Assembly: GCA_965223905.1 (NCBI GenBank)
Contig: CBDCXV010000010.1
Span: 32,001 to 96,000, forward strand
Length of the DNA: 64,000 bases
Source of the DNA: Candidatus Latescibacterota bacterium
GTDB taxonomy: Bacteria; Latescibacterota; UBA2968; UBA8231
Reading direction: 5' to 3'
Notes under the pieces: generated by a model
Database searches by the model: none
Told to the model about the DNA's origin: nothing
Seen by the model: only the letters and a program-made list of their open reading frames with translations
In this document: one piece after another, positions 37,630-58,836 of the stretch
Layout of the letters: the number at the start of each line of letters is the position of its first letter
Numbering within the stretch: position 1 is the first letter of the stretch
Position numbers and translations under genes: made by a program

Positions 37630-37948
37630 GAAGCGAAAAGCCAGTGCCCGCGGCGAGGACCTCGGCCTTTCGGAAGACGAGCTGGCTTTCTACGACGCGC
37701 TCGGCGTCAACGAAAGCGCGGTGCAAGTACTCGGGGACGAGACCCTGCGCACCATCGCCCGCGAACTGGTCGTAACCGTTCAGAACAATGTGACCATCGA
37801 CTGGACGCTCCGCGAGAACGTGCGCGCCAATATGCGCCGGCTAGTGAGGCGAATCTTGCGGAAGCACGACTACCCGCCCGACAAGCAAAAAAAGGCGGTC
37901 CAAACCGTATTGGAACAGGCCGAGGTGCTGTCCGCGGATTGGACCTAA
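37630..37948 (+). pseudogene. hsdR: C-terminal fragment (DUF3387-like) of a type I restriction enzyme R subunit
   Basis: [59 protein letters not shown]. Confidence 0.8.
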
Positions 37949-38113
37949 GTGGTGGTGCATGAGCCGTAATTCCCTGGAAATCTGAAGCAAGGCAATCTGG
38001 TCCCGCACCTTCGGGTTTTTTGCGTCCAGTGTGTAATAGAACCTTCGTCGTCACCGACATCATTTTCCTGCAAGAAAGGGTACGGCCCCGAGGTCGCCGC
38101 GCCGGCGTTCCGC

Positions 38114-39577
38114 GGCTATATACGGGTTTTTCAACGTGGTATTTATAGCGTTTCCCCAATGAGATTTTTAGGGTTTCATACTGTACGGAATCGGGTCGGG
38201 ATCTGCGCAGGGATATCGAGGTCTCCGACGCACAGGTAAATCAGGTCGGCAAAGGCATCCAGAGTTTTAAATCCACTGGCTCGATTCTTGACCATGCGGA
38301 TAATGCGATTGAGCCCTTCGGCGGCGGCGTTGGTCAGGTGCGTGTCGACGAAGGCGGTGATGCCGGCCGCCTGCTTGCGCACCGTGTTGACGAACTTGCG
38401 CAGGGGCTGCAGGCGGCTGCGCAGGGCCGCCGTCGTCCACTTCTTGAGGAAGCGTTCGGCGGCCCAGCGCGCCTTGTAGCGCCAGAAGTGCTCGAACTCG
38501 TCCTTCAGGCGCCAGGCGCGGTAGATGCGGCGGTTGGCCTTCTCCAGGGTTTGGAGCGTGCGCCGGTCCTTTGGCGAGCGCCGGGCGGAGTGATGCAGCA
38601 GCACCCAGCGCAGGCCCTTGAGCAGCTTGCGGTCCTCGCCGCAGGCTTGCCGCCACTGCTCCTTGCGCACCTCGTCGACGGCTTCGTTGAGGGCCTTGAC
38701 GACGTGGAATCGGTCCAGGACCAACTCGGCGTTGGGACCATGCTGCCGGATGGCGCCGATGAAGGTCTCGCTCAGGTCGCAGCAGGCCCAGCGGATGCGG
38801 TCCTTCCGGAAGGCGCTGAGATGGTCCCGGAAAAACGCGTCGATGGTCTTCCGTGCCTTGCCCTTGCCGATCCAGACGACACGGGAACGTTCCAGGTCGT
38901 AGACCAGGGTAGCGTATTTATGGCCCTTGGCGTAGGAGATCTCGTCGATGCCGAGGGTCTTCAGCCGGCGGATGCGGTGCCCCGTACGCCGGCGCTCGAT
39001 GAGCCGGTGCAGCTGGTCGGACAGGGTCGACGGGGCCAGACCCAGCAGGCGCGCGGCGGCGGCCTGCGTCATCCACTGGCAGTACCTCAGCAGCAGGTAT
39101 TCGAAGCGGTAGCTGACCTGGGCCGAGCGCGCCGCCCAGGGCACCTCCTCGACGCGACGGCCGTGGGTCGGGCAGCGGATCTCCCGAGGGGCGTGGTGCA
39201 ACCAGAGGGTACGGCCGCAAACGCGGACGTCGCGCCAGCGGCGGAACTCCATGACCTGTACGATCTTGCCGCGGCGCCCACACTCGGGACACCGGCACCC
39301 GTTCCTTTGGGGCTTCACCGCGACCACGACGGCCGCTTCTTCCCCGTGTCCTTCGAACCACACGCCCACCGCGCGAAATCCCTTGAATTGGAACAGCTTG
39401 GAGACGAACTTCATAGCGGTCATAGGTCGCCTTCCCTTCCCTTTCTTGGGGAGTGCTTGATGGGGATACACCAAGCATAGGGAACGACCTATGGCCTTGT
39501 CATGTACTCAGATGGACAGCAAGGGCTCAGGTACTTTCCGTACTTACGTTTCGGCGTTGAAAAACCCGGATAGACCC
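38114..39577 (-). mobile_element. Complete ISL3-family insertion sequence
   Basis: 23-bp imperfect IRs (GGCTATATACGGGTTTTTCAACG / CGTTGAAAAACCCGGATAGACCC); 8-bp TSD CGTTCCGC on both sides. Confidence 0.93.
38176..39474 (-). CDS. ISL3-family transposase
   Basis: CPECG zinc finger, LGIDE, CCDL, LDRFHVVK, TNAAAEGLN. Confidence 0.93.
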   Translation of the reverse strand: MVYPHQALPKKGKGRRPMTAMKFVSKLFQFKGFRAVGVWFEGHGEEAAVVVAVKPQRNGCRCPECGRRGKIVQVMEFRRWRDVRVCGRTLWLHHAPREIRCPTHGRRVEEVPWAARSAQVSYRFEYLLLRYCQWMTQAAAARLLGLAPSTLSDQLHRLIERRRTGHRIRRLKTLGIDEISYAKGHKYATLVYDLERSRVVWIGKGKARKTIDAFFRDHLSAFRKDRIRWACCDLSETFIGAIRQHGPNAELVLDRFHVVKALNEAVDEVRKEQWRQACGEDRKLLKGLRWVLLHHSARRSPKDRRTLQTLEKANRRIYRAWRLKDEFEHFWRYKARWAAERFLKKWTTAALRSRLQPLRKFVNTVRKQAAGITAFVDTHLTNAAAEGLNRIIRMVKNRASGFKTLDAFADLIYLCVGDLDIPAQIPTRFRTV

Positions 39578-42094: not shown

Positions 42095-42240
42095 AAAGGT
42101 CCTGGATGGTGATGGCCCTCAGGGTTTGCCGAAAACCATCCTTGATGGACGTCATGGTTTCGTGCCCCAGGACCGATTCACGCCAGTGACTGTCGTCCCC
42201 CTGGTTTGGTGGCAGGCCAGCACCTGGGGGGAAGTACGAG
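42095..42240 (-). pseudogene. C-terminal fragment of a second M8-like metallopeptidase
   Basis: DDSHWRESVLGHETMT...LRAITIQDL, homologous to the 24.8-kb gene. Confidence 0.65.
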
Positions 42241-42244
42241 ATCC

Positions 42245-43434
42245 AGCCAACAGGGGTGATATGTTGGCCCCCTGGGGCGTCCCTGCCTCTACGTCGATCC
42301 GCCTGCCCTCTTCCAGGACCCCCGCGTTGAGCCACTTCCTGAGGTGGCGTACCACGCGTCGGTCCCGCACACGGTGCTCGACGAACCTCTCCAGCCATTC
42401 GTGGTCGATGGTGTCGAAGAACCCACGGATGTCCGCGTCGAGTGCCCAGTTCACTTTGCGGTGTCGAATCCCCACCGCCAACGCATCCAGCGCCCTGTGC
42501 GGGGCTGCGCCCCGGTCGAAAGCCATACGAGAATCCCAGGAAATCGACTTCGTAGAACCGCGTTGAGCACCTCCACGGTTGCCTTCTGGACGATCTTGTC
42601 CTCCAGCGCCGCAAGGCCCTGCGGTCTCCTGCCTCCGTCGGCTTTCGGGAGGTAGGTCCGGTTGACCGGTTTGGCTCGATACGCGCCGCGCTTGAGCCGG
42701 GCCGAAAGGTCTTCAAGTCTGCTTCCAACCCCTGCCCGTACTCGCTCCACGTCATGCGATCAACCCCCGGTGCGGCCTCCCGCTTGAGGCCGAGGTAGGA
42801 CCTCCCGGAGGCGGTCGACGGCGTAGACGTGGTGCCACAGCGTCGTGAACGGCAGCGCCCTGTCTCGAACCGCTGCTTGCCGTACGCGTTCGAGCGCCTG
42901 GTTGCAGGCCGGTCCGAATCTGCGCCCGGGACCTGGGGTGCTCGCGCGCGTTCGCCTTGGCCAGCCCCCTTCCCTCCCCCCGCTCCGCCGGCGGCGCAGC
43001 GGGCCGACCGCCCTTGTTCGCGGGGTTCCCTGGGTTGTATGGGGCGGTCCGACTTCCGGCGGTCGTGCGTCATCGGCGTATCCCACATGGGTTCCCGATG
43101 CGGACCCGGGGACCATCCCCCCGGGCCAACCGCCGGACCTCCCGGTTCCCGTACGAGGTGCCTGGGCGCATGCACCGGGTCTCTGACCGCGCCGGGTCCG
43201 GTGGACTGGCGATATCGCGCCCCCCGATGTGGCCCTCCCTCGTCTCCTAGCGGGTCGGCACCCGAAAGTTGTTCATTTCTTTCGCGGCTCAATACCGGAC
43301 CTACGCCTCCCCCTGCCAACGCTTCGCCTGCGCCGTTACCGGCGCACACGCATGACTCGAGGCTGTCGTGGTTCGCTACACCTTCAACACAGAGGACTTT
43401 CACCTCTTACACCTCGCCGGTGTGACCGGCGCAC
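42245..43434 (-). mobile_element. ltrA: 5' part of a group II intron with a frameshifted, truncated reverse transcriptase/maturase
   Basis: 5' GTGCG at 43434; AAPGVD, FLGFSYGFRPGRS, LDADIRGFFDTIDHEWL, GTPQGANISPLLA; breaks off before YADD, and domains V/VI are absent. Confidence 0.88.
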
Positions 43435-43615: not shown

Positions 43616-43654
43616 AGGTTTCAAAAGGGATTTTTATGTTTCATATAATTCCAT

Positions 43655-43975
43655 AGTGGAATCAGTGCCAAAACTCGGATGTCACATGTCAGATGCTAAG
43701 TGCTTGCTATATAATAATTAATAATTAATAACCTGCAATAACTTTGATGTATCCCTCCCATAAAGACGTTTTTCGGAATGTCTTCCCAAGTGGAATCAGT
43801 GCCAAGACTGTCGGATGTCACATGTCAGATGCTAAGTGCTTGCTATATACTAGCAAGCAATAACTTTGGGTGTATACCTCCCAAAAAAAATTTAAATTCG
43901 TTCTTGACACCAGCGAGGCCACGTTTACCTTCGTTTGCAGAAGTTGTAAAGGCGTTTTTCGGAATGCCTTCCCAT
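43655..43975. repeat. Imperfect tandem duplication (~134-bp unit) in the AT-rich region upstream of alpA
   Basis: AGTGGAATCAGTGCCAA..CGGATGTCACATGTCAGATGCTAAGTGCTTGCTATATA at 43655 and 43789; CGTTTTTCGGAATG(T/C)CTTCCCA occurs twice. Confidence 0.85.
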
Positions 43976-44052: not shown

Positions 44053-44253
44053 ATGGATGAAGCCAGAATTTTTCGTCTTCCGGAAGTTCTCGAGCGAACC
44101 GGTCTCTGCCGCACGACGATCTGGCGGAAGGTCAAGGCGGGCACCTTCCCCCCACCGGTGAAGCTGGGAGCGCGCGCCGTCGGCTGGCGATATTCGGATA
44201 TCAAGCAGTGGCTCGAAAACCTGCCCGAGGCGTGCCCCGCACCGACGACATAG
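44053..44253 (+). CDS. alpA: AlpA-family regulator/excisionase
   Basis: RLPEVLERTGLCRTTIWRKVKAGTFPPPVKLGARAVGW. Confidence 0.93.
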   Translation: MDEARIFRLPEVLERTGLCRTTIWRKVKAGTFPPPVKLGARAVGWRYSDIKQWLENLPEACPAPTT

Positions 44254-45410
44254 ACTGGTCGGCCCTTATGGGGCCGGTGGCACTCCACCTGCTTGGAAAA
44301 CCGACGTCGATCGAGAACGGGGAAAAGACCTGGCGATACGGCCGAAAGGGTTCTCTGGCGGTGCACGTTGGCGGTTCGGAGGGGCTGGTCGGCTCCTGGA
44401 CCGACTTCGAAAGCGGCGACCAAGGGGGCGTGCTGGACCTGATCGAGAGGGAACGCAATTGCGAACGTCGCGCGGCTTTGGATTGGCTTCGCGACCAGGG
44501 GTTGATGATCCCCTCCGAGGACCAGCGAGGTCGGATCGGGGCGCCTCGATCCTCCCGCCGCACCCGGGCCTCCCAGGCTGCCCCTCAACGCCGATCCCGG
44601 GAGCCCACCCCGACACCTGCCGGCACAGACGGAGACCGCGAGGCGACAGCCTACGCCCGCCAGCTGTGGGCAAAAGGGGTCCCCGCCGACGACACCCCCG
44701 GTCGCATCTACCTGACCGAACGATGGGTCTGGCCCGGCCTCCATGTGACCGGAGCTCCGAATTTGCCCGCCGAAGTCGTGCGCTGGCTGTCCCGGAAGAC
44801 GGCCGCCCGAACCGTGGCCCCTTGCACCGAAAAGGGGTTGTGGCTGCCCAAAGGCGCGGCCGGAGCCCTGATGTTCGCGTTCACCGAAGCGGACAACGTG
44901 ATCGCCGTTCAGTTCGAGGGCCTGACCGCCGACGGGGAGCGCACCCCCTACACCACTCGCAGGCAGGAAATGAACCGATTCCGCCAGTTCCGGGGGCGGG
45001 TAGCCGGGGCCTACATGCTCCTTCGCCGGGCAGAAAGCAAAAGCCTTCTGATACTCGTCGAGGGCCCGGCCGACGCCCTGGCGGCCTGGTGGCTCTGGCC
45101 CAACGCGGCGGCCGTGTGGAGTTGCGCAGGGACCAGCGGCCTGGCACAGGTGCAGCCCGATCATGTGACCGGTTTCGACACGGTAGCTTTGGCCGCCGAC
45201 GGAGACCGCGCCGGACAGAAAGCTGCCTGGCGGACCACGGTGCGGCTGTTCGAAGCCGGTATTCCTGTCAAAAGATGGCCCAGCCGCCGCGGTGCTGACC
45301 CGGTGGACTCCTTGGCCGAACGCCTCCAGGAACGGGCTGCCATCGTCGAATTCGACGGCCGACTACCTCGCCTCGAGGCCGAAGCCGTGGCTTGGACACC
45401 GTACCTCTAA
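44208..45410 (+). CDS. Toprim-domain DNA primase
   Basis: WRYGRKGSL, WTDFESGDQGGVLDLI, ILVEGPADALA, AADGDRAG. Confidence 0.85.
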   Translation: MARKPARGVPRTDDIDWSALMGPVALHLLGKPTSIENGEKTWRYGRKGSLAVHVGGSEGLVGSWTDFESGDQGGVLDLIERERNCERRAALDWLRDQGLMIPSEDQRGRIGAPRSSRRTRASQAAPQRRSREPTPTPAGTDGDREATAYARQLWAKGVPADDTPGRIYLTERWVWPGLHVTGAPNLPAEVVRWLSRKTAARTVAPCTEKGLWLPKGAAGALMFAFTEADNVIAVQFEGLTADGERTPYTTRRQEMNRFRQFRGRVAGAYMLLRRAESKSLLILVEGPADALAAWWLWPNAAAVWSCAGTSGLAQVQPDHVTGFDTVALAADGDRAGQKAAWRTTVRLFEAGIPVKRWPSRRGADPVDSLAERLQERAAIVEFDGRLPRLEAEAVAWTPYL

Positions 45411-46636
45411 CCAACCCCCCCATGGCCGATCCTGAACCTCTGAAAGAAGTGACCGCCGATCAGGTGGTGGCCCAAAAAGCCCTCAAAAAGTTGCGGAGGT
45501 ACGCCAAGGCAGTCGGCAAGCAGGAAGACACCGACTACGTAAACAGGTTGCGATCCGGACTCAGGAATCTGGTCGATCCCCCCGATGAGGGCGAAACGGA
45601 GGAAGAGGATCGGGAAGCTGACGCTCTGCTCGCCGTAGCCGAACGCTACTCCGACACCGAAGAAGCCGACCCGAAAGAACTCCTTGCCGAGATTCGGGCG
45701 GCTTTTTCCGACGACAACGACAGTTCCAAACACCTGCCGGACCCCGTAGTCGGCGACGCTTGGGATGTGGAGGACCCGGATCGCGAGTGGTTGGTTGACG
45801 GTTGGCTGCCCGCCGCCGAACTGGCCTTGCTGAGCGGCCCCGGAAACGTCGGAAAAAGCCTGTTGGTTCTGCAGCTCGCCAATGCGCTGGCTACGAGCCA
45901 GGAGGTTCCCAGTTGGCTACCCAAAGGGAAGAAAGCAACGGCCGAAGCCCCGGCCCTGAAATCGGAGGAGGGGGTGCCCGTGGTGATGGCGAATTGGGAG
46001 GACTCGGCTCCCGAAGCACGACATCGCCGTTTTAGACTGCATGCTTTCGGCGACTGCAAATGGGCGGATGCTTCCGACGTGAAAAAGCACCTGCACGTGT
46101 TGCCGATGCGCGGCCATGGCCCTACCTGGGGACCGGGCGGAACCGGACACATCTCCGTCATGGGCGAAGTGACCAAAACAGGGGAGGCCCTGCGTCGATA
46201 CTGTGAAGCCCACAAGGCCCGCCTGCTGGTGTTGGATCCGGTCAGCCTTGCCTTGGCGGTCGAGGAGAATTCCCGCCCCCTGGTTTCGGTGGCTTTGGAG
46301 AGTTGGGCCGGGTGGGCCAACGATACCGGCTGTGCGGTGTTGCTGACCGGACACCCCTCCAAGGTCACAGAAGGGGAAGGAAGCGACTACAGCGGCTCGA
46401 CGGCCTGGCGGGGCCTGGTGCGGAGCCTGTGGACGCTCAAGCCACTCAAGGATCCCGACCCCAACGCCGCAGAAACCCACGCGGAGTTGATCTTGAACAA
46501 AGCCAACTACGCCAAGGCCGGACAGATCCTGAACCTTGAGACCCACGGCAGAGGTGCTGCCTGGCATTTTCAGTCTACGGGCAGCGTGAAACGGAAGGGA
46601 ACCGGGGGGGGAAAAGAGGAAGTGAAACCGGCATGA
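45392..46636 (+). CDS. AAA_25 / RepA-like replicative helicase
   Basis: REWLVDGWLP, Walker A GPGNVGKS, Walker B LLVLDP, HPSK, SGSTAW, KANY. Confidence 0.88.
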   Translation: MDTVPLTNPPMADPEPLKEVTADQVVAQKALKKLRRYAKAVGKQEDTDYVNRLRSGLRNLVDPPDEGETEEEDREADALLAVAERYSDTEEADPKELLAEIRAAFSDDNDSSKHLPDPVVGDAWDVEDPDREWLVDGWLPAAELALLSGPGNVGKSLLVLQLANALATSQEVPSWLPKGKKATAEAPALKSEEGVPVVMANWEDSAPEARHRRFRLHAFGDCKWADASDVKKHLHVLPMRGHGPTWGPGGTGHISVMGEVTKTGEALRRYCEAHKARLLVLDPVSLALAVEENSRPLVSVALESWAGWANDTGCAVLLTGHPSKVTEGEGSDYSGSTAWRGLVRSLWTLKPLKDPDPNAAETHAELILNKANYAKAGQILNLETHGRGAAWHFQSTGSVKRKGTGGGKEEVKPA

Positions 46637-48036
46637 ACAACCCCAAATCCCAAAATGAGGAAGCTCGGAAGTACGCCAACGACCACCGGATCGAGACTGT
46701 CCGCTACGCCATCCACGACGTCGGACGCCTGCAGGACTGGGCGAAGAAGGATCCAGAACGGTTCCCTACGGCTGTGGAGCTGGGCAAACGCTTAGAAGGA
46801 TTCGAACTCGAAGGCCGGCGCTACGTCTGTCAGAATGACGATTTTAATCCCCCAGAACTCGTAAAATTAGTGGCCGAGGCCCTGTACCCAGAGGACGAGT
46901 CAGTTTTTCTGGTGTCGGGAACATGGCAACAACCCTCTGGCCAATATGAAAAGAATCAGGAGGGTGCTAAGCCCGTTTTTGACCAGAATGGTCGGATATG
47001 GATTCCCGACGAAGACCCGTTCGAGTGGATCATCGAGGCCCTCAACGAGGCCGCGGTAAGCGCCGACGGATTGACAGCGCTGGCCGAAGTAGTACCCATA
47101 GATCCAGAAACTAGCCGACCCGATCCCATATTGGCAGCCCCTCTCGTTATGGTCCATCGAGACCACCAACAGGCCAACCTGTTCAGCCCATCGAGGTGGG
47201 GGGAGACACAAAATGGGCAGTACGAAATGTTTTCCGGATTCGGCCGCAGCCAGGAAGACGGTCCGATCGTCCCGGCACTTCCTATGGCGTTGTACGACCT
47301 GGGAGTCGGAGGCCATCAACATATATCGCCCGGTAGTGGCGCCCCGATGGCCCTGCGTATCTTCGTCGAAATGTGCCTGTCAGTACCTCTTGCAGAACGG
47401 AACCGGCCCGGCCCTGTGGTGTTAAAACCCCAACGCTTCTGCGAATTTCTGGAAACGCTGTATCCCGACTCCTCGTCCTATCGTCCCGGCCGCCACTATG
47501 GCCCCATACGCGAAGCCCTGGAAAGCCTGACGACTCCCCAAGCTCGGGTACCCTGGGTTGATCCGGAAACCGGCGACGGCGCGGCCCGTTTCGTGGTGGT
47601 TCCCTTGGACGTTCCTCGCGAAGGAAGAATGAAGGATTGGATTCAGTTCCAGGTCCATTTACCTCCCGGCTCCCACCGCGGCGCCATCGTGGACCGACCA
47701 GCCATGCGGGTAGCGGGAGTTAGGTCGGTGACGATGTATCGCATGGCGTTGTCGCTGGCACTACACTGGCACGATCCAGGACGCCTGCGAGTCCCAATTT
47801 CAAGGGGGAAAGAAAAGCATTGGTACCAAGTCCGATCCCCGGAACGATACCCCGAAGTCACGGATGCCCAATTGATTGGGATGGCCTACCCTCGCACCAG
47901 TGACGACGACAACCGCCGTATGCGGTTAAAGCGAGCTCAGGAAGCGCTAGACGCCTTGGTGGAAATCGGGTATGCCGCAGTGCATCCCAGGCGGCTAATA
48001 TATCCAGGACCCAAATGGGTGGGATGGGGTACGTAG
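46633..48036 (+). CDS. Hypothetical protein, candidate replication initiator
   Basis: 467 aa, ATGA-coupled to the helicase and immediately followed by iterons; no motif recognised. Confidence 0.6.
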   Translation: MNNPKSQNEEARKYANDHRIETVRYAIHDVGRLQDWAKKDPERFPTAVELGKRLEGFELEGRRYVCQNDDFNPPELVKLVAEALYPEDESVFLVSGTWQQPSGQYEKNQEGAKPVFDQNGRIWIPDEDPFEWIIEALNEAAVSADGLTALAEVVPIDPETSRPDPILAAPLVMVHRDHQQANLFSPSRWGETQNGQYEMFSGFGRSQEDGPIVPALPMALYDLGVGGHQHISPGSGAPMALRIFVEMCLSVPLAERNRPGPVVLKPQRFCEFLETLYPDSSSYRPGRHYGPIREALESLTTPQARVPWVDPETGDGAARFVVVPLDVPREGRMKDWIQFQVHLPPGSHRGAIVDRPAMRVAGVRSVTMYRMALSLALHWHDPGRLRVPISRGKEKHWYQVRSPERYPEVTDAQLIGMAYPRTSDDDNRRMRLKRAQEALDALVEIGYAAVHPRRLIYPGPKWVGWGT

Positions 48037-48077
48037 GCCGGAAATCGCCGCTTAACCTAACGCCCGGAACTCAAGCC

Positions 48078-48482
48078 TAACCGACAAGCACCTTCCTCCC
48101 GGAGTTAGCGGATCGCGACGTCCGCCCTGAACCCCCAAAAAGGTCTCTAACGGGATTTTATCGGCCCCTTCGAAGCGTTAGAGACGTGCTTGTCGGTTAC
48201 GCCGACCCCCCTTTACAGCCCCTGGACGTTAACCTCGGTAGCGAAAATCCTTGAAAAAAGGGGCCGTATCCGATTTTTCTCCCCTTTTTTTTCCTAAAGA
48301 CGTGCTTGTCGGTTACGCCGATCCCTTACAGGCCCTTAAAAAACGTGCTTGTCGGTTACGCACGGGTGTGTCGCCCCTCTTCTTTCCTTGAGGGGAGGCC
48401 CCCCCGTCCTGTCGGTAAAAGACGTGCTTGTCGGTTACAAAAGACGTGCTTGTCGGTTACAAAAGACGTGCTTGTCGGTTAC
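48078..48482. repeat. Iteron cluster (putative replication origin)
   Basis: (G)ACGTGCTTGTCGGTTAC at 48183, 48299, 48343, 48421, 48443 and 48465 (last three at a 22-bp period), plus an inverted partial copy TAACCGACAAGCAC at 48078. Confidence 0.85.
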
Positions 48483-49402
48483 ATTTTCGCCCCTGCTAGT
48501 TCGGCTAACTTGTTGTCTGGCAACGAGTTGATTTTTCCGCGGAATGCCCACCGACCCCGACCCCCACGAGGGGAGGGGGGGGCCGCTGGGAGGGGACGAA
48601 GGGTGGCTCCCCTCCCGCGGCCATTCCAAAAAAAACCGTTTTCGTCATGTCGGCGATCACGGTATCGTCGTCGGCCAGGTATTTCCCGAACCGGCACCGA
48701 AACCCGACCTGGGTTGTCGATGTGGGTCCGACGACCTCGAGCAGCTTGCCGACACTTCCCCGGTTTTTTTGGAAAAATTTTGAAAATTTTCCACGAGCTC
48801 TGCGCGAGGGTAACTTCACCCCGCTGCGCAGCTCCGCGCGCTTCGCCGTCGATCTGAGATCCCCCCCCGACGGTCCCCCGGCCCCCTTCGCGCTCGTTCG
48901 TTCGCGTTCTTTCCGCCCCCTCGCGTTTCTCCGCCCCTCGCGGCGCTGACCGCCCCCCCTGGACGCGCTCCGGCCCCCTTCGTTGCACCGTGCAGCACCG
49001 TCAATTCAGCCTGCGGCGCCTCGTTTTTGAGTTCGTATATCAACCATTATCACAAGTAAAACAGCACCCAGCTAATAGCTATTGTCCGGTGGGTCGTCCG
49101 CCTTCGACCAGCCCGGCCGGACGGAACGAACTACTACGCCCTCGGCCCTTGAGAACCACCAACGGCCTTTCGATGGCTTTGGGAAACCGGCAAAAGGTGC
49201 CCGAGGTAGCAGGCCCCAGGGGATTTTCAAAGTGCTTGCTGACAAACAATCAGTACGCTAAGGGGCTCTCACTCTCACTCTAACTCTAACCCATCGCAGG
49301 TTGCCCCCCCGACTCAACAAAGCGAGGACCTGAACCTCCCCCTTTCGACTCGCCGGGCTCCAACCAATCGCGCGATTCGGCGCCCTTCTGCCGAGAAACA
49401 TT

Positions 49403-49431
49403 TTGCGCTACGTGGCGATAATTAGTATTGT
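49403..49431 (+). promoter_or_regulatory. Candidate sigma70 promoter of the ribozyme-punctuated operon
   Basis: TTGCGC-17 bp-TATTGT in an AT-rich patch, then an AGGAGG RBS. Confidence 0.45.
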
Positions 49432-49476
49432 CTTATCTAAATGAACACTTCACCCCCAACAGGAGGAACAAAGACC

Positions 49477-49914
49477 GTGCTGACCTACAACGACTACCGC
49501 AACGTCGATTTGCGGACGGACGTGATGGAAACGGCGTCGGGAGAGGCTGTGAAACTGCCTGAGGTGCCGTTGCCTGAGATGATTTCGTTCAGGAACAGCG
49601 TGGCGAGTGAAGGGGATTGGGTGCTTGCCGACTACCTGCGGCAGTTCGTGCCGGAGGTATTCCTGTCGAATCTCGGCGCGGCGATAGCGCACTCGATTGA
49701 CCCGGCTATGAACAGCGTCGGCGTCGAGGCGGCGATCAGGGTGTCTCATGAGACCCTGTCGGGGTTGGATGCGGAGACCTTCGCCCACGAAATCAACCTC
49801 GCCCGCGCCTGCGAGTTCATCCGGCCCGGCTACCTCGCCGCATGCGCCCGGGAGCAGGGTATGGATCAGGACTACTGCGCGGCGGCGAAGTATGTGCAGG
49901 AGGCGACGGCATGA
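49477..49914 (+). CDS. Hypothetical protein
   Basis: GTG start after AGGAGG; ORF open from 49441. Confidence 0.7.
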   Translation: MLTYNDYRNVDLRTDVMETASGEAVKLPEVPLPEMISFRNSVASEGDWVLADYLRQFVPEVFLSNLGAAIAHSIDPAMNSVGVEAAIRVSHETLSGLDAETFAHEINLARACEFIRPGYLAACAREQGMDQDYCAAAKYVQEATA

Positions 49915-50027
49915 GCTTCTCCCTCACGGTGCTGTTCACGCTGCTTGTGATCTACCTCGTGTTGCTTCTCACGGTGCCGATTTACATGGCATTAACCACA
50001 CGTCGCAACGGGCGACGATACAGGTAA
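49911..50027 (+). CDS. Small hydrophobic peptide (38 aa)
   Basis: ATGA overlap, GGAGG RBS, MSFSLTVLFTLLVIYLVLLLTVPIY. Confidence 0.55.
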   Translation: MSFSLTVLFTLLVIYLVLLLTVPIYMALTTRRNGRRYR

Positions 50028-50099
50028 CGGTGAGGGGGCGGGAGCCTTTTCGGGGCTTCCGCCTAAGCCTACGTGCCGGCGTCTCAAGTGCCGGCGCCC
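50022..50099 (+). ncRNA. Twister ribozyme, type P5 permutation (#1); predicted cleavage 50064/50065
   Basis: GGU-GAGGG-[P1 GGCGGGAGCC/GGCUUCCGCC]-U^AA-GCC-UAC-GU-[P4 GCCGGC GUCUCAAGU GCCGGC]. Confidence 0.8.
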
Positions 50100-50127
50100 T
50101 TTAACCCATTCAGGAGGAACAGGCAAG

Positions 50128-50703
50128 ATGAAAGAGATCACGATTCAACGCTCGGAGCTGGAAGGGGCTGGTATCCAGCCCTACGTCGCCATGCTCCTGC
50201 TCGGACACGACCCGGGCACCTTGTCGGCGGCGACGATGCCCAAGGCGATGCGCGAGTTCGCGGCGCGCCACAACGTGCTGATGGCGCTGATGATGCCGGA
50301 CGCCTCGGCGAACTTCCGGGGTGGCAACGTGTGGGTGACAGGTTGGGCGGGGCAGGGGGCAGAGGAGGATTGGCGGCCGGAGCGATGCCAGTTCGTGGTA
50401 GAGCAGGAGACCGAGCTGATGATGCCGGTGACTTTGGAGTTGAAGATGAAATTGAGCGGCCGCGTGCTTCGGTATGACGCGGACATTCCGTCCGGTCCGG
50501 TGTCCGTGGTCGACGAATGGACCACGCTCGGGGCGATACTCGCACAGTGTCCCGAGTTGGCCGACGAGGTGCTGCGGTCAGGCGACACGCTCGCGGTGGT
50601 TATCGAGCAGCCGGAGGCCCCGGAGGCCCCGGAGCTCGGAAGCGACAAGGACCGGGATCGAATGAACAAGGACGGTACCCCGCCCATTGTTTGGTCGAGG
50701 TGA
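50128..50703 (+). CDS. Hypothetical protein
   Basis: AGGAGG RBS; 191 aa. Confidence 0.75.
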   Translation: MKEITIQRSELEGAGIQPYVAMLLLGHDPGTLSAATMPKAMREFAARHNVLMALMMPDASANFRGGNVWVTGWAGQGAEEDWRPERCQFVVEQETELMMPVTLELKMKLSGRVLRYDADIPSGPVSVVDEWTTLGAILAQCPELADEVLRSGDTLAVVIEQPEAPEAPELGSDKDRDRMNKDGTPPIVWSR

Positions 50704-50772
50704 GAGGTGAGAGGGGCGGGGGGAGACCCCGCCCTAACCCCACAGCCCGGACATCTCAAGTACCGGGCCACC
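50699..50772 (+). ncRNA. Twister ribozyme type P5 (#2); predicted cleavage 50735/50736
   Basis: GGU-GAGAG-[P1 GGGCGGGG GAGA CCCCGCCC]-U^AA-CCC-CAC-A-[P4 GCCCGG ACAUCUCAAGUA CCGGGC]; P5 GGUG/CACC. Confidence 0.72.
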
Positions 50773-50792
50773 CATTCACAGGAGGTAGCAGC

Positions 50793-51368
50793 ATGTATCT
50801 CAGAGACGGAAAGGTCGGACAGACCTTCAAAGAGCCGAAGAGCGGCAGGTTCGTCACCCTCTTCGACATCAACGGCGGCGAGGCGACGTTCAGCTACACG
50901 ACGGGCGTCGAGGCGACGGGTATGGGACCTGTCGGCGAAGTGTTCCCGATGGGCGATTGGGAGCCTGTCCCGATCCCTGTCATCCCCGACAGCCCTTGGG
51001 GGCAAACGCAGTACGTTGGCGGCGTGGCGGAGGGCATCTACAGGATCATCACGGCCTCTCACGGCGGTCTCAGACTGTTGCAGGCTGCGCAGGACAAGCT
51101 GCCTCCGGGAGTGCGTCAGATGTTCCTGAACGGCCCCGAGTGGGCCGAAGAGGACTGCGAGGAGATCATCGTGCTCGCGTTGCTCGGGTTGACCGGCAAG
51201 CGGGAGATCCTGCTGGCGCTGAAGATGGCGCAACAGATCCCCCGGTATCAGCCGGCAGTGGCCAAGCTGTGCGAGCTCGCCGGCGTCGAGGTAGTCGAGA
51301 CCCCGGCGCTGAACCCGTTGCAGGGCTCGTACGCACACGCGGACGGGCGTACCGAGTACTCGGATTAG
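50793..51368 (+). CDS. DUF7007-like hypothetical protein
   Basis: SPWG....VAEGI..I.TASHGG.RL...W.EEDCE motif; AGGAGG RBS. Confidence 0.7.
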   Translation: MYLRDGKVGQTFKEPKSGRFVTLFDINGGEATFSYTTGVEATGMGPVGEVFPMGDWEPVPIPVIPDSPWGQTQYVGGVAEGIYRIITASHGGLRLLQAAQDKLPPGVRQMFLNGPEWAEEDCEEIIVLALLGLTGKREILLALKMAQQIPRYQPAVAKLCELAGVEVVETPALNPLQGSYAHADGRTEYSD

Positions 51369-51435
51369 AAACCACAAGGGGTAGGGGTATGACGAGCTCG
51401 TGCAGCCCCTACCCCTTGTGGAAAGGACAAACGAA

Positions 51436-51597
51436 ATGAGCTTGAACATCGAGAAGGTGCGGGAGCTGATGGAATCGGCGGCGGAGACCCTGGAGCTGTC
51501 CGGCTCCGAGGACCTGCACGTGACCGCGGCGGCCTGCCGCATCCGCTTCTACGCTTCACAGCTGGAAGAGTGGGAGTTGGAGGTCTACGAGGAATGA
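51436..51597 (+). CDS. Hypothetical protein (53 aa)
   Basis: AAGGA RBS following a long hairpin. Confidence 0.55.
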   Translation: MSLNIEKVRELMESAAETLELSGSEDLHVTAAACRIRFYASQLEEWELEVYEE

Positions 51598-51694
51598 CAA
51601 CCATCATCGAAGTCAGGCGCATCGTTGCTTTCGACGCCAACGGAGAGCCCGTGTGGCGGACGTTGCTGGAGGTGCGCATCAGGGAGAATGAACG

Positions 51695-52504
51695 ATGAAT
51701 CACGCAGGAACCAAGGTTTTCACGGACAAGATCGACGACGTAAGGATGCGCGAGATGTGCAGCATCATCGCCGCCTACATCGCCTCGCGCACCGCGGCGG
51801 TAGACTGGACGGGCGTCGAGGCCCTCGCCGCCGTCGCCGCCGAACTCGGGTTTGTGGACCGGGACGGGGTGATCGTCGGCGGACTCGCCGAATACCTCCA
51901 ACAGAGCTTGGGGGCGGAGCACGTCAACTATCGGCCCGCCATCAACATCCTGCAGGCTGCCGGCAGAGCGCGGGACGTGACGGACCTGAACAGCCTCACG
52001 GTGCACGTCGATGTAGAGGTGACCGAGGGAGACATCGCGGACGGTATCCAGGGGAATTGCGACCTGTGCGCCCTGGCGCTGGCGCTGCAGCGGGCAGTTG
52101 GCATCGAGGTCCACGTGCACGTGACGGGTACGATGGCCTACCTCGACGGGTTCTATCACTGCTGGCTGCCGGCAGAGGTCAAGACCTTCATCAGCCTGTT
52201 CGACAACAACTCCGACAACGGTGTGACGGTCAAGCCCTTCAAGGTGCACCTGATCTTCATCGCGACGGGACCGAGGGCGATTCCCGAGGAAGCGCGGTGC
52301 AACGCAAGCCGGTTCAGAAACGATGCCACGCCGACGTGGAGCTACTGGATCGAGACGGACGGCCCGGTGCTGGAGGATAGCGTCAGGGCGCACACGCTGG
52401 CAGAGGCGCGGCAGTTGATCCGAGCCGCACACCCCAACGACATCGGAGCGGACGGCGAGGTCACAGGGCCTGGCGGTCACAGCTTCCCGGTGTTCAGGAA
52501 GTAG
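51695..52504 (+). CDS. Hypothetical protein
   Basis: 269 aa; contains VEVTEGDIADG..GNCDLCALALALQR. Confidence 0.75.
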   Translation: MNHAGTKVFTDKIDDVRMREMCSIIAAYIASRTAAVDWTGVEALAAVAAELGFVDRDGVIVGGLAEYLQQSLGAEHVNYRPAINILQAAGRARDVTDLNSLTVHVDVEVTEGDIADGIQGNCDLCALALALQRAVGIEVHVHVTGTMAYLDGFYHCWLPAEVKTFISLFDNNSDNGVTVKPFKVHLIFIATGPRAIPEEARCNASRFRNDATPTWSYWIETDGPVLEDSVRAHTLAEARQLIRAAHPNDIGADGEVTGPGGHSFPVFRK

Positions 52505-52615
52505 CGGCGAGGGGACCGGGGTCCCGAAAGGGAGCGAGGGGCAGTGAGGAGCTGTCCCTCGCTTGGCAATCCCGGTCTAAGCCTACTGCCGGTGTCTCAA
52601 GTGCCGGCGCCTTCT
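52497..52615 (+). ncRNA. Twister ribozyme type P5 (#3) with a branched P1 insertion; predicted cleavage 52578/52579
   Basis: GGC-GAGGG-[P1 GACCGGGG...UCCCGGUC]-U^AA-GCC-UAC-U-[P4 GCCGGU GUCUCAAGU GCCGGC]. Confidence 0.8.
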
Positions 52616-52641
52616 ACCCCATTCAGGAGCAAGAAATCGAC

Positions 52642-53259
52642 ATGGACATGGAGCGAATGATTTACCCGAACCGGGCGCAGGTTCAAATCGACGTGGTGGA
52701 CCACCTGCGAAAGGCGGCGGACTTCCTCGCTGTCGATGAGGAATCGATGCGGAATCCGGCCAACGTGGCGGCCTTGATGCTGCGGGAGATGTACACAGGC
52801 GGCGGGACGCTGTCCGATTACGTGGGCTCCTCGCTCGGGGAGTACATCGTCGAAACGCTCGGACTGACCGAGGCGCGGCTCGATTGGGAAGAGGAGGAGG
52901 ACGTGTGGATGGTGAGGCACCACAACTACGGACGGGAGACGCTCTACGGGGCCTATACCTCGTATCAGGAGATGCAGGACGCGGTGACTGCATCCGGAGT
53001 GATGGCCGTGTTCGCCTCTGACGGAGCCTGGGAGCGCATCTGTCGCCTCGACCTGTTGGACAACCCCGGAGCCGAGCGGCTGCGAGGGGAGGCCCTGGTG
53101 TCCCGCGTGAAGGAGATCCTGCGCGGCGCCGGCGCCGGCATCAGAGAAGGCGGCAGGGCGGGGGAGCTCGCCGCGTTGGCCATTCACCGCGCAAGCGGCC
53201 AATTCAGCTACGAGGACCTCAACTGCGAGGACCTCTACGAAGAGGACAAGGGGGTGTGA
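52642..53259 (+). CDS. Hypothetical protein (paralog A)
   Basis: MDMERMIYPN...; clearly homologous to 53604..54206. Confidence 0.8.
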   Translation: MDMERMIYPNRAQVQIDVVDHLRKAADFLAVDEESMRNPANVAALMLREMYTGGGTLSDYVGSSLGEYIVETLGLTEARLDWEEEEDVWMVRHHNYGRETLYGAYTSYQEMQDAVTASGVMAVFASDGAWERICRLDLLDNPGAERLRGEALVSRVKEILRGAGAGIREGGRAGELAALAIHRASGQFSYEDLNCEDLYEEDKGV

Positions 53260-53375
53260 ACGGCGAGGGGACCGGGGTCCCGAAAAGGGAGCGAGGGGCA
53301 GTGAGGAACTGTCCCTCGCTTGGCAATCCCGGTCTAAGCCTACGTGCCGGCGTCTCAAGTGCCGGCGCTTCTCTT
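53250..53375 (+). ncRNA. Twister ribozyme type P5 (#4); predicted cleavage 53335/53336
   Basis: 5' half near-identical to #3, 3' half identical to #1. Confidence 0.8.
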
Positions 53376-53400
53376 TTAACCCATTCAGGAGAGGATTGGA

Positions 53401-53601
53401 ATGATCTACTGCGTGGCAGTGAAGAAGTACGAAGAATGGCACTGGAGCGTCAAAGACGAAGAGGACCGCCTGTGCTACACGACAACCGCCCGCACCAACG
53501 CGAATGCGGTGGCGGAGTTCCTGTCGGACCCAAGGACGCCTCATTTCGAGGGCATGAAGGCATGGATTGCCGACGTGACCGAAAACCGAAAGGACGGGTA
53601 G
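53401..53601 (+). CDS. Hypothetical protein (66 aa)
   Basis: AGGAGAGG RBS. Confidence 0.65.
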   Translation: MIYCVAVKKYEEWHWSVKDEEDRLCYTTTARTNANAVAEFLSDPRTPHFEGMKAWIADVTENRKDG

Positions 53602-53603
53602 CA

Positions 53604-54206
53604 ATGGACATGGAACGGATGATCTATCCGAACCCGACGCAGGTGAAAATCGACGTGATTCAGCATCTGCGGAAAGCGGCTGAGTTCCTCACCTTGGAAC
53701 ACCTCACGAGAACCCACCCGTCCAACGTGGCTGCCTGCCTGTTGCGGGAGACCTACGTCGGCGGCTCGATGCTCGCCGATTACGTGGCTTCCTCGCTCGG
53801 GGAGCACCTCGTCGAGACGCTCGGGCTGACCGAGGCGCGCCTCGATTGGGACCCGGACGAAAGCGTGTGGCTGGTGCATCACTTGGCCATGGAGCAGGAG
53901 ACGTTCTACGGCGGGTACAACTCATACGCGGAGATGCTACAGGCGATGGCGACAAGCGGAGGGATGGCCGTGTTCGCCTCTGATGGAGCCTGGGAGCGTA
54001 TCCGGCAGCTCGACCTCATGGACACCCCCGGAGCCGAACAGCTCACAGGAGAGCCCCTGGTAGAGCGCATACGGGAGATCATGCGAGGCGCGGGGGCGAG
54101 CATCCGGGGAGGCGGGCGTGCCGGCGAGCTCGCCGCGTTGGCCATCTACCGGGCAAGCGGGCAGTTCGCTTACAAGGACCTCACTCCAAAGGAGCAAGGG
54201 TTGTAG
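53604..54206 (+). CDS. Hypothetical protein (paralog B)
   Basis: MDMERMIYPNPTQVKIDVI...; paralog of 52642..53259. Confidence 0.8.
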   Translation: MDMERMIYPNPTQVKIDVIQHLRKAAEFLTLEHLTRTHPSNVAACLLRETYVGGSMLADYVASSLGEHLVETLGLTEARLDWDPDESVWLVHHLAMEQETFYGGYNSYAEMLQAMATSGGMAVFASDGAWERIRQLDLMDTPGAEQLTGEPLVERIREIMRGAGASIRGGGRAGELAALAIYRASGQFAYKDLTPKEQGL

Positions 54207-54277
54207 CGGCGAGGGGGCGGAAGGCTACGGTCCTCCGCCTAAACCCACAGCCGGTGCCCCAAGTGCCGGCGCAACCC
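54198..54277 (+). ncRNA. Twister ribozyme type P5 (#5); predicted cleavage 54240/54241
   Basis: P5 GGGUUGU/GCAACCC; GGC-GAGGG-[P1 GGCGGA..UCCGCC]-U^AA-ACC-CAC-A-[P4 GCCGGU GCCCCAAGU GCCGGC]. Confidence 0.78.
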
Positions 54278-54290
54278 ACAGGAGGAACGG

Positions 54291-55052
54291 ATGAAGTCAT
54301 TGGATGAGTGCCACGACCTGCTCGTGCAGGGAGTGAGAGAGAGGAAGAAAGAGCTGATCGAGGAGGCCCGCAACGAGGCGGCGCCGTGGTCCCTGCCCAA
54401 GATCGTGCTGAGCATGACCGGCGTGGATCTCGTCGGAACCAAGGGACACGGAAGCAACTACCTCCCGAAGGACGGCGAGCCCACCAGCGAGGTTGTCGAC
54501 CGGATCGCGATGGCCCTGTGCGGGTCGATCTTCATCGCCGACACCCTCGACAACGAGGCGAGGGACATCATTCAGAGCCGCATCTCCCTGTTGGATCAAT
54601 GGGCAGAAACGGAGAATCTGGAGACGGCGGCTCGGTTCCTGATCGAGAACCGTTGCGAGCGCAAGGTGCCGGCGACGACGGCCGCTGATTCCATCCTGTT
54701 GCTGAAGCCCTTCGTTTTTCCGCGCTACATCTCCGAGGCGGTGAAGGCGTACACCGAGCGCATCAGGCAGCACAACCGGAAGCTGATGCAGGAGGAGGAG
54801 GAGAGGGTGAGAGCGAGGCGGGCAGAGCAGGAAAACCGCGTTCACCTCGACATCATGCGAAACGGCCACTCTCTCGCCGCAGCCACCTTGAAGGGGCCGG
54901 GGGCGTGGGACATCGCCGAGGTGCTCTGCAAGAGCTTGGCGAGCGGTCCCCAATTCAGCGACTCGTTCCTGCGAATCACGTCGGGTCCCGAAAGCCGCGA
55001 GATCCCTCTTGATCTCGGCGGCAAGTTCGATGAGGAAGAGGAAGAAGAATGA
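54291..55052 (+). CDS. Hypothetical protein
   Basis: AGGAGG RBS; 253 aa. Confidence 0.75.
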   Translation: MKSLDECHDLLVQGVRERKKELIEEARNEAAPWSLPKIVLSMTGVDLVGTKGHGSNYLPKDGEPTSEVVDRIAMALCGSIFIADTLDNEARDIIQSRISLLDQWAETENLETAARFLIENRCERKVPATTAADSILLLKPFVFPRYISEAVKAYTERIRQHNRKLMQEEEERVRARRAEQENRVHLDIMRNGHSLAAATLKGPGAWDIAEVLCKSLASGPQFSDSFLRITSGPESREIPLDLGGKFDEEEEEE

Positions 55053-55206
55053 AACCGACTCCTCCCCGTGGAGGAACAGGACCGGGGGGGGAGTGATGAA
55101 TCCAGACTGGCAAGAATCGCCTTGCAAGGGGGAGGGGGAAGGACTGCGAGGGTCCTCCCCCTCCCGAACAACAACCACTCATCCCGAGAAGGAGAATGGA
55201 TAGCCA

Positions 55207-55934
55207 TGAAGATGCACAACTCCGCAGACCGCGTCACCTGCGCCCGTGAGGCGCCCGGCGCCGGCAGGGTATCGGAGGCCGGCCCGGTGTACGACGGCCC
55301 TCTGGCGGCTCCTACGTGCCGCGAGCGGCTGATTTCGGACGGTCCCGAGTCGATGCGCGATTCGGAACTGCTGACCGTCGCCCTGGGTAGTACGGAAGAG
55401 GACGCCCGCGAGATCGTCGAGCGCTTCGACTTCGGCGAGCTGGTCAACCTGAGCGTCGACAAGCTCGCCAACCTGAGCGGCGTCACCTCCTGCCGCGCGG
55501 CGCGGCTGCTGGCCGCCGTCGAGATCGCCCGCCGGGCGCTGAATCGCGGCATCGGCATCCTGCCGGTGATTACGACGCCCGTCGAGACGATTCCGCTGCT
55601 GGCCGACATCAAGGACGAGCTCAAGGAGTTCTTCGTCTGCCTGTATCTGAACGCCCGCAATCAGGTGATCCACAAGGAGGTCGTCAGCATCGGCTCGCTG
55701 TCGGCGTCCATCGTCCACCCCCGCGAGGTGTTCCGGATCGGCGTGGCCAAGTGCGCGGCTTCGGTCATCCTCGCCCACAATCATCCCTCCGGGGACGTGT
55801 CGCCCTCCAAGGACGACATCGACCTGACGCACAGGCTGCGGGAGGCCGGGCTCATCATGGGCATCGAGGTGCTGGACCACATCATCATCGCCCGCTCGGA
55901 TTTCTGCAGCCTGAAGGAGACCGGGATCGTATGA
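55207..55934 (+). CDS. radC: RadC-family (JAB domain) protein
   Basis: RERL...G..S..D.ELL, KEFF.CLYLNARNQVI, VHPREVF, AHNHPSGD..PS..D, VLDHIII. Confidence 0.92.
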
Positions 55935-56637: not shown

Positions 56638-57162
56638 ATGAAGAAGTGCAGTGAATGCAATAACCCCATTCCAGAGGACCGGCTGAAATTGCAACCGAAC
56701 GTCAAGACCTGCTCGGACATCTGCTCAGCGATGCGCCAAGGGTCGAAGGGCAACCAGCGCTCGAAGTCCTATCGTCAGCGCGTTCGGAAGAGCCTGGGGG
56801 AGCTCGAACACGTTCCTCTGGTCGAGGACACCACCTTGATCGTCCGCCGTGGCCACGTCGTCGGGTGGCAACCGGAAGGAGAGGGGTGGAAACTGGTCGC
56901 AGTGGTTCGCGCAACGCATGAGGGCAGGGCAACCCATGTCTGCCCCGTCAGTTCCTGGGGACAGCAAAAAGCCACGTCGGCCACCCGGTTGTCGGGCGGG
57001 AAGATAGCCGTCCTGCCCCCCCAATGGGCTCAAGACCAGGAGTGGGTGAGGGACCTCGCCCAGGTATCATTTTCGGATTTGAAGGCTCTGGAAAAGTCGT
57101 TGGATACCCTGGCCCAGCGCCGCTCGTCCTCCGACTGCGCAGGTCAGGAAAGCGGGAGATAA
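56638..57162 (+). CDS. Hypothetical protein with an N-terminal CxxC..CS..C zinc finger (copy 1)
   Basis: MKKCSECNNPIP...KTCSDICS; paralog of the 58337 gene. Confidence 0.75.
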   Translation: MKKCSECNNPIPEDRLKLQPNVKTCSDICSAMRQGSKGNQRSKSYRQRVRKSLGELEHVPLVEDTTLIVRRGHVVGWQPEGEGWKLVAVVRATHEGRATHVCPVSSWGQQKATSATRLSGGKIAVLPPQWAQDQEWVRDLAQVSFSDLKALEKSLDTLAQRRSSSDCAGQESGR

Positions 57163-57881: not shown

Positions 57882-58336
57882 CCAAGTAGACGCTTCGGAT
57901 ACTACCGAACTTTTGGGGGAATCGAAAAGCCTCCGACTGCGCAGGTCAGGAAAGCGGGAGATTTCGGCCTCCGGTCGAACCGGAGAGCGAGGGTTATAAG
58001 GTGCAGCCCCCCTGAAACGAAATGCAACTCCCGGCAGCCCCTCAGTTGAGGGACTGGCCTGCGACAGCGACCCGTCCGACTGCTTGCCGCCGCGGCGTCG
58101 CCTCCTGCACCCCTTACGCCACGGGATTTCGAGACCGCCGCCGCTCTCGACCTGAACGCCGCCGACCGCCGCCGCCAGGAAAGCGAGCGGCTCAAAGCGC
58201 TTTCTCTGCGGCGCCACCCGACCGAATCGGTGGGACGCCGCCTGCTCAACCGCCTCCTGCGCGCCCTGTCCGCCCTGCTGTGATAAGGGGGACGGGGACG
58301 GTCGGGAGGATACCAGGAAGGAACAGGGAGAGCACA

Positions 58337-58836
58337 ATGAAGAAGTGCACGGTATGTAGAAAGAACATTCCAGCCGCCCGGTTCAGAGCGCGGCCACACA
58401 CCAAAACCTGCTCGGTCGCCTGCTCCGGGATTCGCCAGGGGAACAAGGGCAGCAATCGCTCGAAGTCCTACCTCCAGCGCGTACGCAAAACCCTCGTGGA
58501 GGTCCCGCACGTGCCCCTGGTCGCCGGCACCGAACTGAAAGTCCGCAAGGGCCACGTCGTCGGCGTGAAGCACGCCGAGGGGGGCAGGTGGCACCTGGCC
58601 GTGGTGGTGCGCGCTACGCAGGAAGGCAAGGCGATTCATGCCTGTCCCGCCAGCGAATGGGCGACGACAAGTGCCACGCCGGCCACCCGGTTGGCCGGCG
58701 GGACGGTCGCCGTCCTGCCGCCCGAGTGGGCCGAGAATCAGGAGCTGGCCGTCGAGCTCGAGGAACAGCGGTCCCGTATCTGGAGGAACTGCGGCAGGCG
58801 GTGGTGGAACGGCGGGAGGCGGTGAGCCAGGGGTAA
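58337..58836 (+). CDS. Zinc-finger hypothetical protein (copy 2), frameshift near 58771
   Basis: MKKCTVCRKNIP...KTCSVACS; paralog of 56638..57162. Confidence 0.75.

Follow-up and report, generated by a model that had tools for sequence, protein, structure and literature searches.

Does an operon that carries the same small structured element in one intergenic space after another encode RNAs that cut their own message? The question is raised by a stretch of 64 kb from a Candidatus Latescibacterota bacterium (hereafter the window; contig positions 32001–96000 of a 7.9-Mb assembly), in which we have found five intergenic elements, all on the + strand, within a single run of genes. Their layout is that of twister, a class of self-cleaving ribozymes reportedly defined by Roth et al. 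in 2014, in its circularly permuted, type-P5 form. As far as the sequence lets us judge, it is quite likely that the five elements are a lineage-specific, divergent type-P5 twister, predicted to cleave itself and to punctuate the operon message.

The layout common to all five elements is GG(N)-GAG(G/A)G-P1 hairpin-CU^AA-(N)CC-(U/C)AC-P4, with a P4 loop (L4) reading (G/CA)U C(U/C)C AAGU, where the caret marks the predicted cut. The GG(N) is the 3' strand of helix P2 (P2') and the (N)CC its 5' strand, and the two pseudoknots that would join the P4 loop to the core are named T1 and T2. The element cores, given here from P2' through the end of P4, and the leader that follows the first of them are:

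50029..50097, + strand: element 1 core; P2' 50029-31, GAGGG 50032-36, P1 hairpin 50037-63, P2 50067-69, T2 'AC' 50071-72, P4 50073-80/50090-97, L4 50081-89; predicted cut U50064^A50065
50098..50127, + strand: conserved leader after P4 of element 1, with the ribosome binding site (..ACCCAUUCAGGAG..), from the alignment
50706..50768, + strand: element 2 core; GAGAG, P1 of 8 bp, predicted cut U50735^A50736; P2' GGU with a U/C mismatch beside the core, two extra nucleotides and an A/A closing mismatch in L4, middle pair of T1 A-U
52506..52609, + strand: element 3 core; perfect 3-bp P2, P1 a three-way junction at 52514-52577; predicted cut U52578^A52579
53262..53368, + strand: element 4 core; P1 a three-way junction; predicted cut U53335^A53336
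54208..54270, + strand: element 5 core; C/A mismatch in P2 beside the core, T1 GGG:CCC; predicted cut U54240^A54241

Reading the sequence again confirmed the places, the layout and the five cut positions given in an earlier annotation of this DNA (the original prediction), and its account of T1 (GGG:CUC, GAG:CUC, GGG:CCC), of T2 (AC:GU), of the extra nucleotide in L4 and of the mismatches that copies 2 and 5 have in P2 holds on the alignment. Two statements on placement had to be changed. The cores start 1–2 nt after the upstream stop codon, and the overlap with that codon that had been claimed is true only if a flanking stem P5, which is not consistently supported, is counted as part of the element. 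From the end of P4 to the next ATG there are 20–32 nt and not 13–30. Directly 5' of element 2 the heptamer GGUGAGA is doubled (window 50699-50713; GGUGAGAGGUGAGAG), with the stop codon inside the first repeat, and this duplication allows two possible P2'-GAGAG registers.

How far does this family extend? A covariance model (R1) was built from the five elements and one paralogue found on another contig, C9. Run with filters off over the whole window it gave exactly five matches, with 84.2, 68.8, 73.8, 80.3 and 67.3 bits for elements 1 to 5, and the next score was 11.6 bits, a separation that is partly circular given that the model was built from these elements. Over the whole genome there were six matches, the sixth being the paralogue (C9:422774-422844, − strand), located in a paralogous island with primase, DUF7007, RadC and zinc-finger genes. 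A sister genome, G002, has two independent copies 2 kb apart (L063:2521-2601 and L063:614-682, both on the − strand, 57.3 and 52.1 bits). The C9 and sister-genome copies lie in other spacers than those of the window, around a TraR-type zinc-finger gene, and have G at N-1, the nucleotide before the cut. Among 61 relatives searched at E<=0.1, R1 matched four genomes including that of the window, with nothing convincing beyond the sister genome; the matches in G014 (32.3 bits) and G027 (26.6 bits) were rejected as non-members, the core motif being absent from their alignments. In 151 genomes of the phylum, matches were confined to the window genome (G000) and G002.

Public data were also scanned with patterns for the 3' half of the element that require NCC in P2 and CCGG in P4 and would therefore not pick up relatives with other stems. 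They gave 14 loci in the viral collection, none with an R1 match, 35 in genome contigs, where the sister genome was the sole true member (next best 27.4 bits), and 39 in metagenomes, the best at 21.8 bits. Within the reach of these searches the family is thus small and restricted, its eight copies coming from two genomes of a single genus. One metagenome locus (L111:11357-11411, − strand) shows, after a stop codon, a GC hairpin followed by CUAA-CCC-UAC and a P4 with the loop AAUCCCAAGUG; it resembles the 3' half of the family plus P1, is without GAGNG before P1, and may be due to chance or be a distant altered relative.

When the eight copies are aligned, the strand order P2 (3' strand)-L1-P1 hairpin-cleavage site-P2 (5' strand)-L2-P4/L4 is found in every one. 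Paired positions are filled by true pairs in 95.2% of the cells, against 81.2% in shuffles (none of 500 as high) and 34–48% when the partners are slid. In P1 both sides change at seven of the eight pairs. The P2 pair beside the core is A-U in three copies, C-G in two and U-G in one, while T1 is paired in 100% of the cells, with a middle pair that is G-C in four copies, G-U in three and A-U in one, in what is a small sample of related copies. T2 is A-U plus C-G in all eight. The letters G, A, GNG, AA, C, U, CNC and AAG are kept in place in seven of the eight copies, the exception being the second sister-genome copy. At N-1 the five window copies have U and the other three G. Seventeen cells hold G.U pairs, which would be A/C on the opposite strand, indicating that the structure belongs to the RNA of the + strand.

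These data bear on whether the elements are units of DNA and not of RNA, such as a repetitive extragenic palindrome or miniature inverted-repeat transposable element, an integron attC-type recombination site, or the single-stranded DNA promoter of a transfer leading region. An intergenic unit repeated within a mobile element, with elements 3 and 4 nearly identical and copies that look mosaic, would fit such an origin. Every copy is, however, on the coding strand and at a fixed position between stop codon and ribosome binding site, the 17 G.U cells could pair only in RNA of the + strand, and there is neither a single long imperfect palindrome nor an attC-type core. We rejected the attC and single-stranded promoter readings on anatomy and strand, and regard a DNA-level explanation as a whole as very improbable.

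The mosaic appearance has a more local aspect. In elements 3 and 4, P1 takes the form of a three-way junction (about 65 nt) that is nearly identical in the two, whereas the 3' half of element 4 is nearly identical to that of element 1. Two pairs of tandem paralogous genes are also present in the operon, 52642-53259 with 53604-54206 (66% identity) and 56638-57162 with 58022-58825 (57%). Tandem paralogues, the shared P1 and the shared 3' half together suggest that modules of gene plus element may have been duplicated and recombined. The leader ..ACCCAUUCAGGAG.. between P4 and the start codon is the same after elements 1–4 and shortened after element 5; since it differs in the C9 and sister-genome copies, ribozyme and leader appear to have spread as one unit inside the window operon.

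Is the RNA related to the known twisters? The consensus of the Rfam family RF02684 (Twister-P5) reads P2'-GAGgG-P1-UAA-P2-GC-linker-cCGG-UCcCAAGC-CCGg, with its parts in the same order as in our elements. Scanning viral contigs with a pattern derived from this consensus gave at least 118 canonical type-P5 twister loci, typically of the form CGCA-GAGUG-P1-UAA-UGCG-GC-AGG-CCGG-UCACAAGC-CCGG. A second covariance model (R2), built from 40 canonical phage twisters only and run with filters off on the window (a search space of 128 kb), ranked element 2 first (18.0 bits, E 0.01) and element 1 second (15.2 bits, E 0.048), both in the correct register. That the two top ranks should fall on the elements is not expected by chance. 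The scores are low because P2 is GG(N):(N)CC against CGCA:UGCG in the phages, T2 differs and L4 has insertions. RF02684 itself gave sub-cut-off matches for two of the eight family copies, the one on C9 (28.3 bits, genome-wide E 0.002) and one in the sister genome (22.0 bits), the gathering cut-off being 37.6 bits; over the 151 genomes of the phylum six had matches at E<=0.05, none of them above the cut-off. A generic twister descriptor found eight sites in the 7.9-Mb genome, all six copies among them, three in the reversed genome and zero to two in five shuffles, which is a weak control since its tolerances were set with the elements known.

An intergenic structured RNA of another kind (terminator or attenuator, site for RNase III or E, or protein-binding leader) that resembles twister by chance would account for the lack of any curated model match on the five elements, and the terminator scan did pick out P4 in element 4, which has a U-rich tail. 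The same scan found 16 sites for 15.5 expected, that is, no enrichment, and the other four elements are without a U tract. Chance resemblance would have to reproduce about 17 core positions in the order and topology of twister, the two R2 ranks at the top of 128 kb, and the match of the paralogue to Twister-P5. A 5' half that fits was present in only one of the 58 matches to the 3'-half pattern found elsewhere in public data, that of the sister genome. We consider an unrelated RNA quite unlikely.

In several respects the elements deviate from the canonical form. The A-U/C-G version of T2 has clear parallels: in the viral contigs GC..AAGC was found at at least 118 loci, AC..AAGU at 16 and the mismatched AC..AAGC at none, and 14 of the 16 AC:GU loci are above the Rfam cut-off, at 39–62 bits. 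AC:GU is thus a natural compensated variant. In the rice twister, T1 and T2 base-pair swaps keep activity and C26U (a G.U in T1) is tolerated (PMC5113685), and the search rule of CHiTA for the 5' strand of T2 is 'NC' (PMC11662667). The same source describes tests on 1948 natural twisters in which imperfections in P1, P2 and P4, any N-1 base and insertions at the ends of L4 were tolerated (PMC11662667).

Three features are peculiar to the family, an enlarged L4, a P2 of three pairs and the lack of a consistent P5. L4 is enlarged in all eight copies by an inserted Y.G pair plus one more G (element 2 has two extra nucleotides), and the near-invariant G-C pair that closes it is kept in all eight (alignment columns 92-105). 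The flanks that might form P5 gave duplexes equalled by fractions of 0.27, 0.89, 0.24, 0.62 and 0.06 of the shuffles for elements 1–5, 0.20 for C9, and 0.007 and 0.003 for the two sister-genome copies; element 5 has a possible 6-bp P5-like pairing of 54198-54203 with 54272-54277. The RF02684 model is itself without P5.

A number of these results, and some others, weigh against a functional twister. At the gathering cut-off or at E<=10, over the window or its 4.5-kb region, the Rfam twister models matched none of the five elements, and single-element searches at E<=10 with element 5 (116 nt) and element 1 (96 nt) gave no twister match either; all that these searches returned were names at chance level such as GRIK4 3'UTR and suhB. 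The original prediction had named the lack of a covariance-model match as a refutation, and by that measure the outcome for all five elements speaks against it. The twister-core reading is supported on structure (identity of layout with RF02684, covariation, the sub-cut-off matches and the R2 ranks), while membership of the five in the curated family is not shown. The R2 E-values are marginal for two of the five, and elements 3, 4 and 5 had no full-length match (partial matches of 6.2 bits for element 3 and 6.3 bits for element 4, none at E<=10 for element 5). P2 has only three Watson-Crick positions, the fourth being C/U, C/C or A/C in all eight copies, while the class has been described with four such pairs (PMC5408937), and the pair beside the core is unpaired in two of the eight (elements 2 and 5). 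The enlarged L4 occurs at none of the loci in the viral contigs, comparing flank duplexes with shuffles revealed no P5 stem consistent across copies, and T2 is invariant within the family. The alignment was fitted to the model, and all eight copies are related and come from two genomes of one genus. Finally, in the second sister-genome copy the A of GAGNG is missing and AAG has become ACG; this copy is probably dead, judging by these core letters, which means that copies of the family can decay.

Much of this would be explained if the elements were relics derived from twister that no longer cleave, their hairpins and leader being kept as stabilisers of the mRNA, insulators of translation or recognition sites for an RNase or other protein encoded by the host or by the element, with any processing left to proteins. 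Scores that are sub-threshold or absent, a shortened and partly mismatched P2, an L4 not seen in phage twisters and a decayed sister copy point in this direction, and CHiTA reports that some natural twister candidates do not cut (PMC11662667). On the other hand, the unpaired letters of the catalytic core are invariant in seven of eight copies while the stems vary freely, and changes in T1 are compensated. This is the pattern expected under selection for the tertiary fold of twister and not for plain hairpins, and we judge the relic explanation unlikely. The elements are probably a lineage-specific variant of twister, and there is a good likelihood that at least the better copies (1, 3 and 4) cleave themselves at N^AA.

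The genes that surround the elements were named with NCBIfam, Pfam and PHROGs, and few of them received a name. The run is as follows:

44208..55934, + strand: gene run holding the elements, from the list of open reading frames (ORFs) and protein-family matches
44208-45410, + strand: Toprim primase, by family match
45392-46636, + strand: AAA_25 ATPase, by family match
up to 49911-50027, + strand: genes without a family name, ending in a 38-aa ORF, followed by element 1
50128-50703, + strand: gene between elements 1 and 2
50793-51368, + strand: DUF7007 gene, first of four between elements 2 and 3
51436-51597, 51594-51698 and 51695-52504, + strand: the other three genes between elements 2 and 3
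52642-53259, + strand: gene between elements 3 and 4
53401-53601 and 53604-54206, + strand: two genes between elements 4 and 5
54291-55052, + strand: gene after element 5
55068-55934, + strand: RadC gene

The + strand run has the codon statistics of a normal high-GC coding pattern (GC1~0.65 / GC2~0.44 / GC3~0.83). Long antisense ORFs that span elements, for instance 50181-51542 on the − strand, have an atypical codon-position GC and were discarded as genes. Beyond 55.9 kb there are genes for TraR-type zinc-finger proteins and an integrase, and in the neighbourhood of the elements the protein-family matches revealed no capsid, tail or other structural or transfer genes. The run belongs to an integrated mobile element of unsettled type. 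The label of satellite-like replicon given to it in the original prediction is plausible for a neighbourhood with integrase, primase and AAA_25 ATPase and without structural or transfer genes. Upstream of the primase gene, three sigma-70-like sites at 43620-43851 compare with a chance expectation of 3.0, which is no evidence for a promoter.

Other features of the window deserve mention. Between the DUF7007 gene and the small gene that follows it, a spacer of 67 nt holds a perfect 16-bp hairpin at 51372-51421 (stems 51372-51387 and 51406-51421, 18-nt loop) without a U tract. It is the sole spacer there in which a plain hairpin replaces a twister-like element. Just upstream of the operon, a match to the D1-D4 domains of a group II intron (RF02005, 161 bits) adjoins a short reverse-transcriptase fragment ORF (43177-43400 and 42152-42526, both on the − strand), and the intron is probably truncated. 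A C-terminal fragment of the R subunit of a type I restriction enzyme (T1RH-like_C, 139 aa) adjoins an ISL3 transposase (window 37529-39474), and looks like a restriction gene disrupted by the insertion sequence. More transposase or integrase genes are found at 10077-11438, 13243-14184 and 27827-28417. A protein of 2460 aa encoded at 1162-8544 on the − strand has 13 fibronectin type III stretches and a C-terminal secretion sorting domain (Por_Secre_tail / FlgD_ig).

What would a twister do in this operon? In the mechanism that we propose, the 3-bp P2 would enclose a loop made of GAG(N)G, N^AA and the P1 hairpin, the P4 loop would dock onto this core through the pseudoknots T1 (GNG:CNC) and T2 (AC:GU), and the RNA would cut itself between N-1 (U) and A. 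The upstream piece would have the P1 hairpin and a 2',3'-cyclic phosphate at its end, and the downstream piece would begin with a 5'-OH and carry the P4 hairpin, the conserved leader and the ribosome binding site. If the genes are transcribed together, the message would be divided into mRNAs of one to four genes, with stabilities and translation uncoupled. The predicted pieces would be one ending with 49911-50027, then 50128-50703, 50793-52504 (four genes, with the 16-bp hairpin), 52642-53259, 53401-54206, and 54291 onward. An RNase E/G homologue is present in the genome (314.5 bits), and no RNase J above the cut-off was found in the 93.6%-complete assembly (43.4 bits against 400). RNase E prefers 5'-monophosphate ends, so ends with a 5'-OH capped by a hairpin should stabilise the mRNA.

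We also favour, by a narrower degree of confidence, a more far-reaching view, in which the elements would be active members of a previously unrecognised, Rfam-invisible subclass of twister with an enlarged L4 (extra Y.G pair and bulged G), a P2 of three pairs and an open P5. They would then be the first self-cleaving ribozyme noted in Latescibacterota, on a non-phage integrated element in which modules of stop codon, ribozyme, leader and ribosome binding site have been multiplied and recombined within one operon. A literature search for Latescibacter and ribozyme gave nothing relevant, its sole match concerning, by its title, an Alba domain. Should the elements cut, the twister core would prove able to accommodate a larger L4 and a P2 of three pairs, the descriptors used to search for twister would have to widen, and it would be explained why curated models miss such copies. 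Ribozyme-punctuated operons, known from phages, would then also occur on a chromosomal integrated element in a phylum that is poorly known and mostly uncultured. The five natural variants, some with P2 mismatches and some without, would form together with the decayed copy a compact set for studying how punctuation affects mRNA stability and translation.

The twister class has been covered in reviews (PMC5408937; PMC6765202), and the comparison with what is known begins with Rfam Twister-P5. The elements are like it in strand order and permutation, in the core letters (G-A-GNG, N^AA, the C of T2, U-CNC-AAG), in the helices P1, P2 and P4, in the covarying T1 and in an L2 linker of 2–3 nt as in the phage examples. 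They are unlike it in their A-U/C-G T2, in the P2 of three pairs, GG(N):(N)CC, where the phage CGCA:UGCG is near-invariant, in the Y.G pair and G added to L4, in having no regular P5, in the three-way junction that forms P1 in two copies, and in the lack of Rfam matches for the five, with the sister copies below the cut-off. The phage type-P5 twisters with AC:GU (16 loci) are closer, with the same compensated T2, the same placement between stop codon and ribosome binding site and a like occurrence in arrays (six per ~4 kb), and some of them share the U/C mismatch of element 2 at the P2 pair beside the core (GGGU..CCCC type, 39.2 bits). In contrast to the window elements they keep an 8-nt L4 and a four-position P2, pass the Rfam cut-off in 14 of 16 cases, as said, and are on phage contigs, not on a chromosomal island of Latescibacterota.

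The original prediction had considered a serially punctuated operon in a satellite-like replicon of this kind of host to be undescribed, a claim that finds no support. Phage contigs often carry several type-P5 twisters in series between their genes, six per ~4 kb in the viral contigs L232, L235 and L243 and five in 2.7 kb in L118. There is also prior evidence from hammerheads. According to Perreault et al. (2011; PMC3088659), clustered hammerheads flank single genes or short blocks of prophages and integrated elements near integrase genes, one example flanking the anti-restriction gene ardA. The authors proposed that these ribozymes divide polycistronic RNA into pieces of gene length, and demonstrated such cutting in vitro with fragments of ~2 kb. 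The idea of gene-length mRNAs was repeated for twisters in a 2019 review (PMC6765202). As with those hammerheads, here several ribozyme-like elements flank the genes of a mobile element near integrase genes; the differences are the class of ribozyme and the cleavage, shown in vitro for the hammerheads and predicted for the elements of the window. No new kind of mechanism is involved, as ribozyme class and arrangement are both known. What is new is the divergent, Rfam-invisible variant of the core, the host phylum and the location on a chromosomal island in which no phage structural genes were seen.

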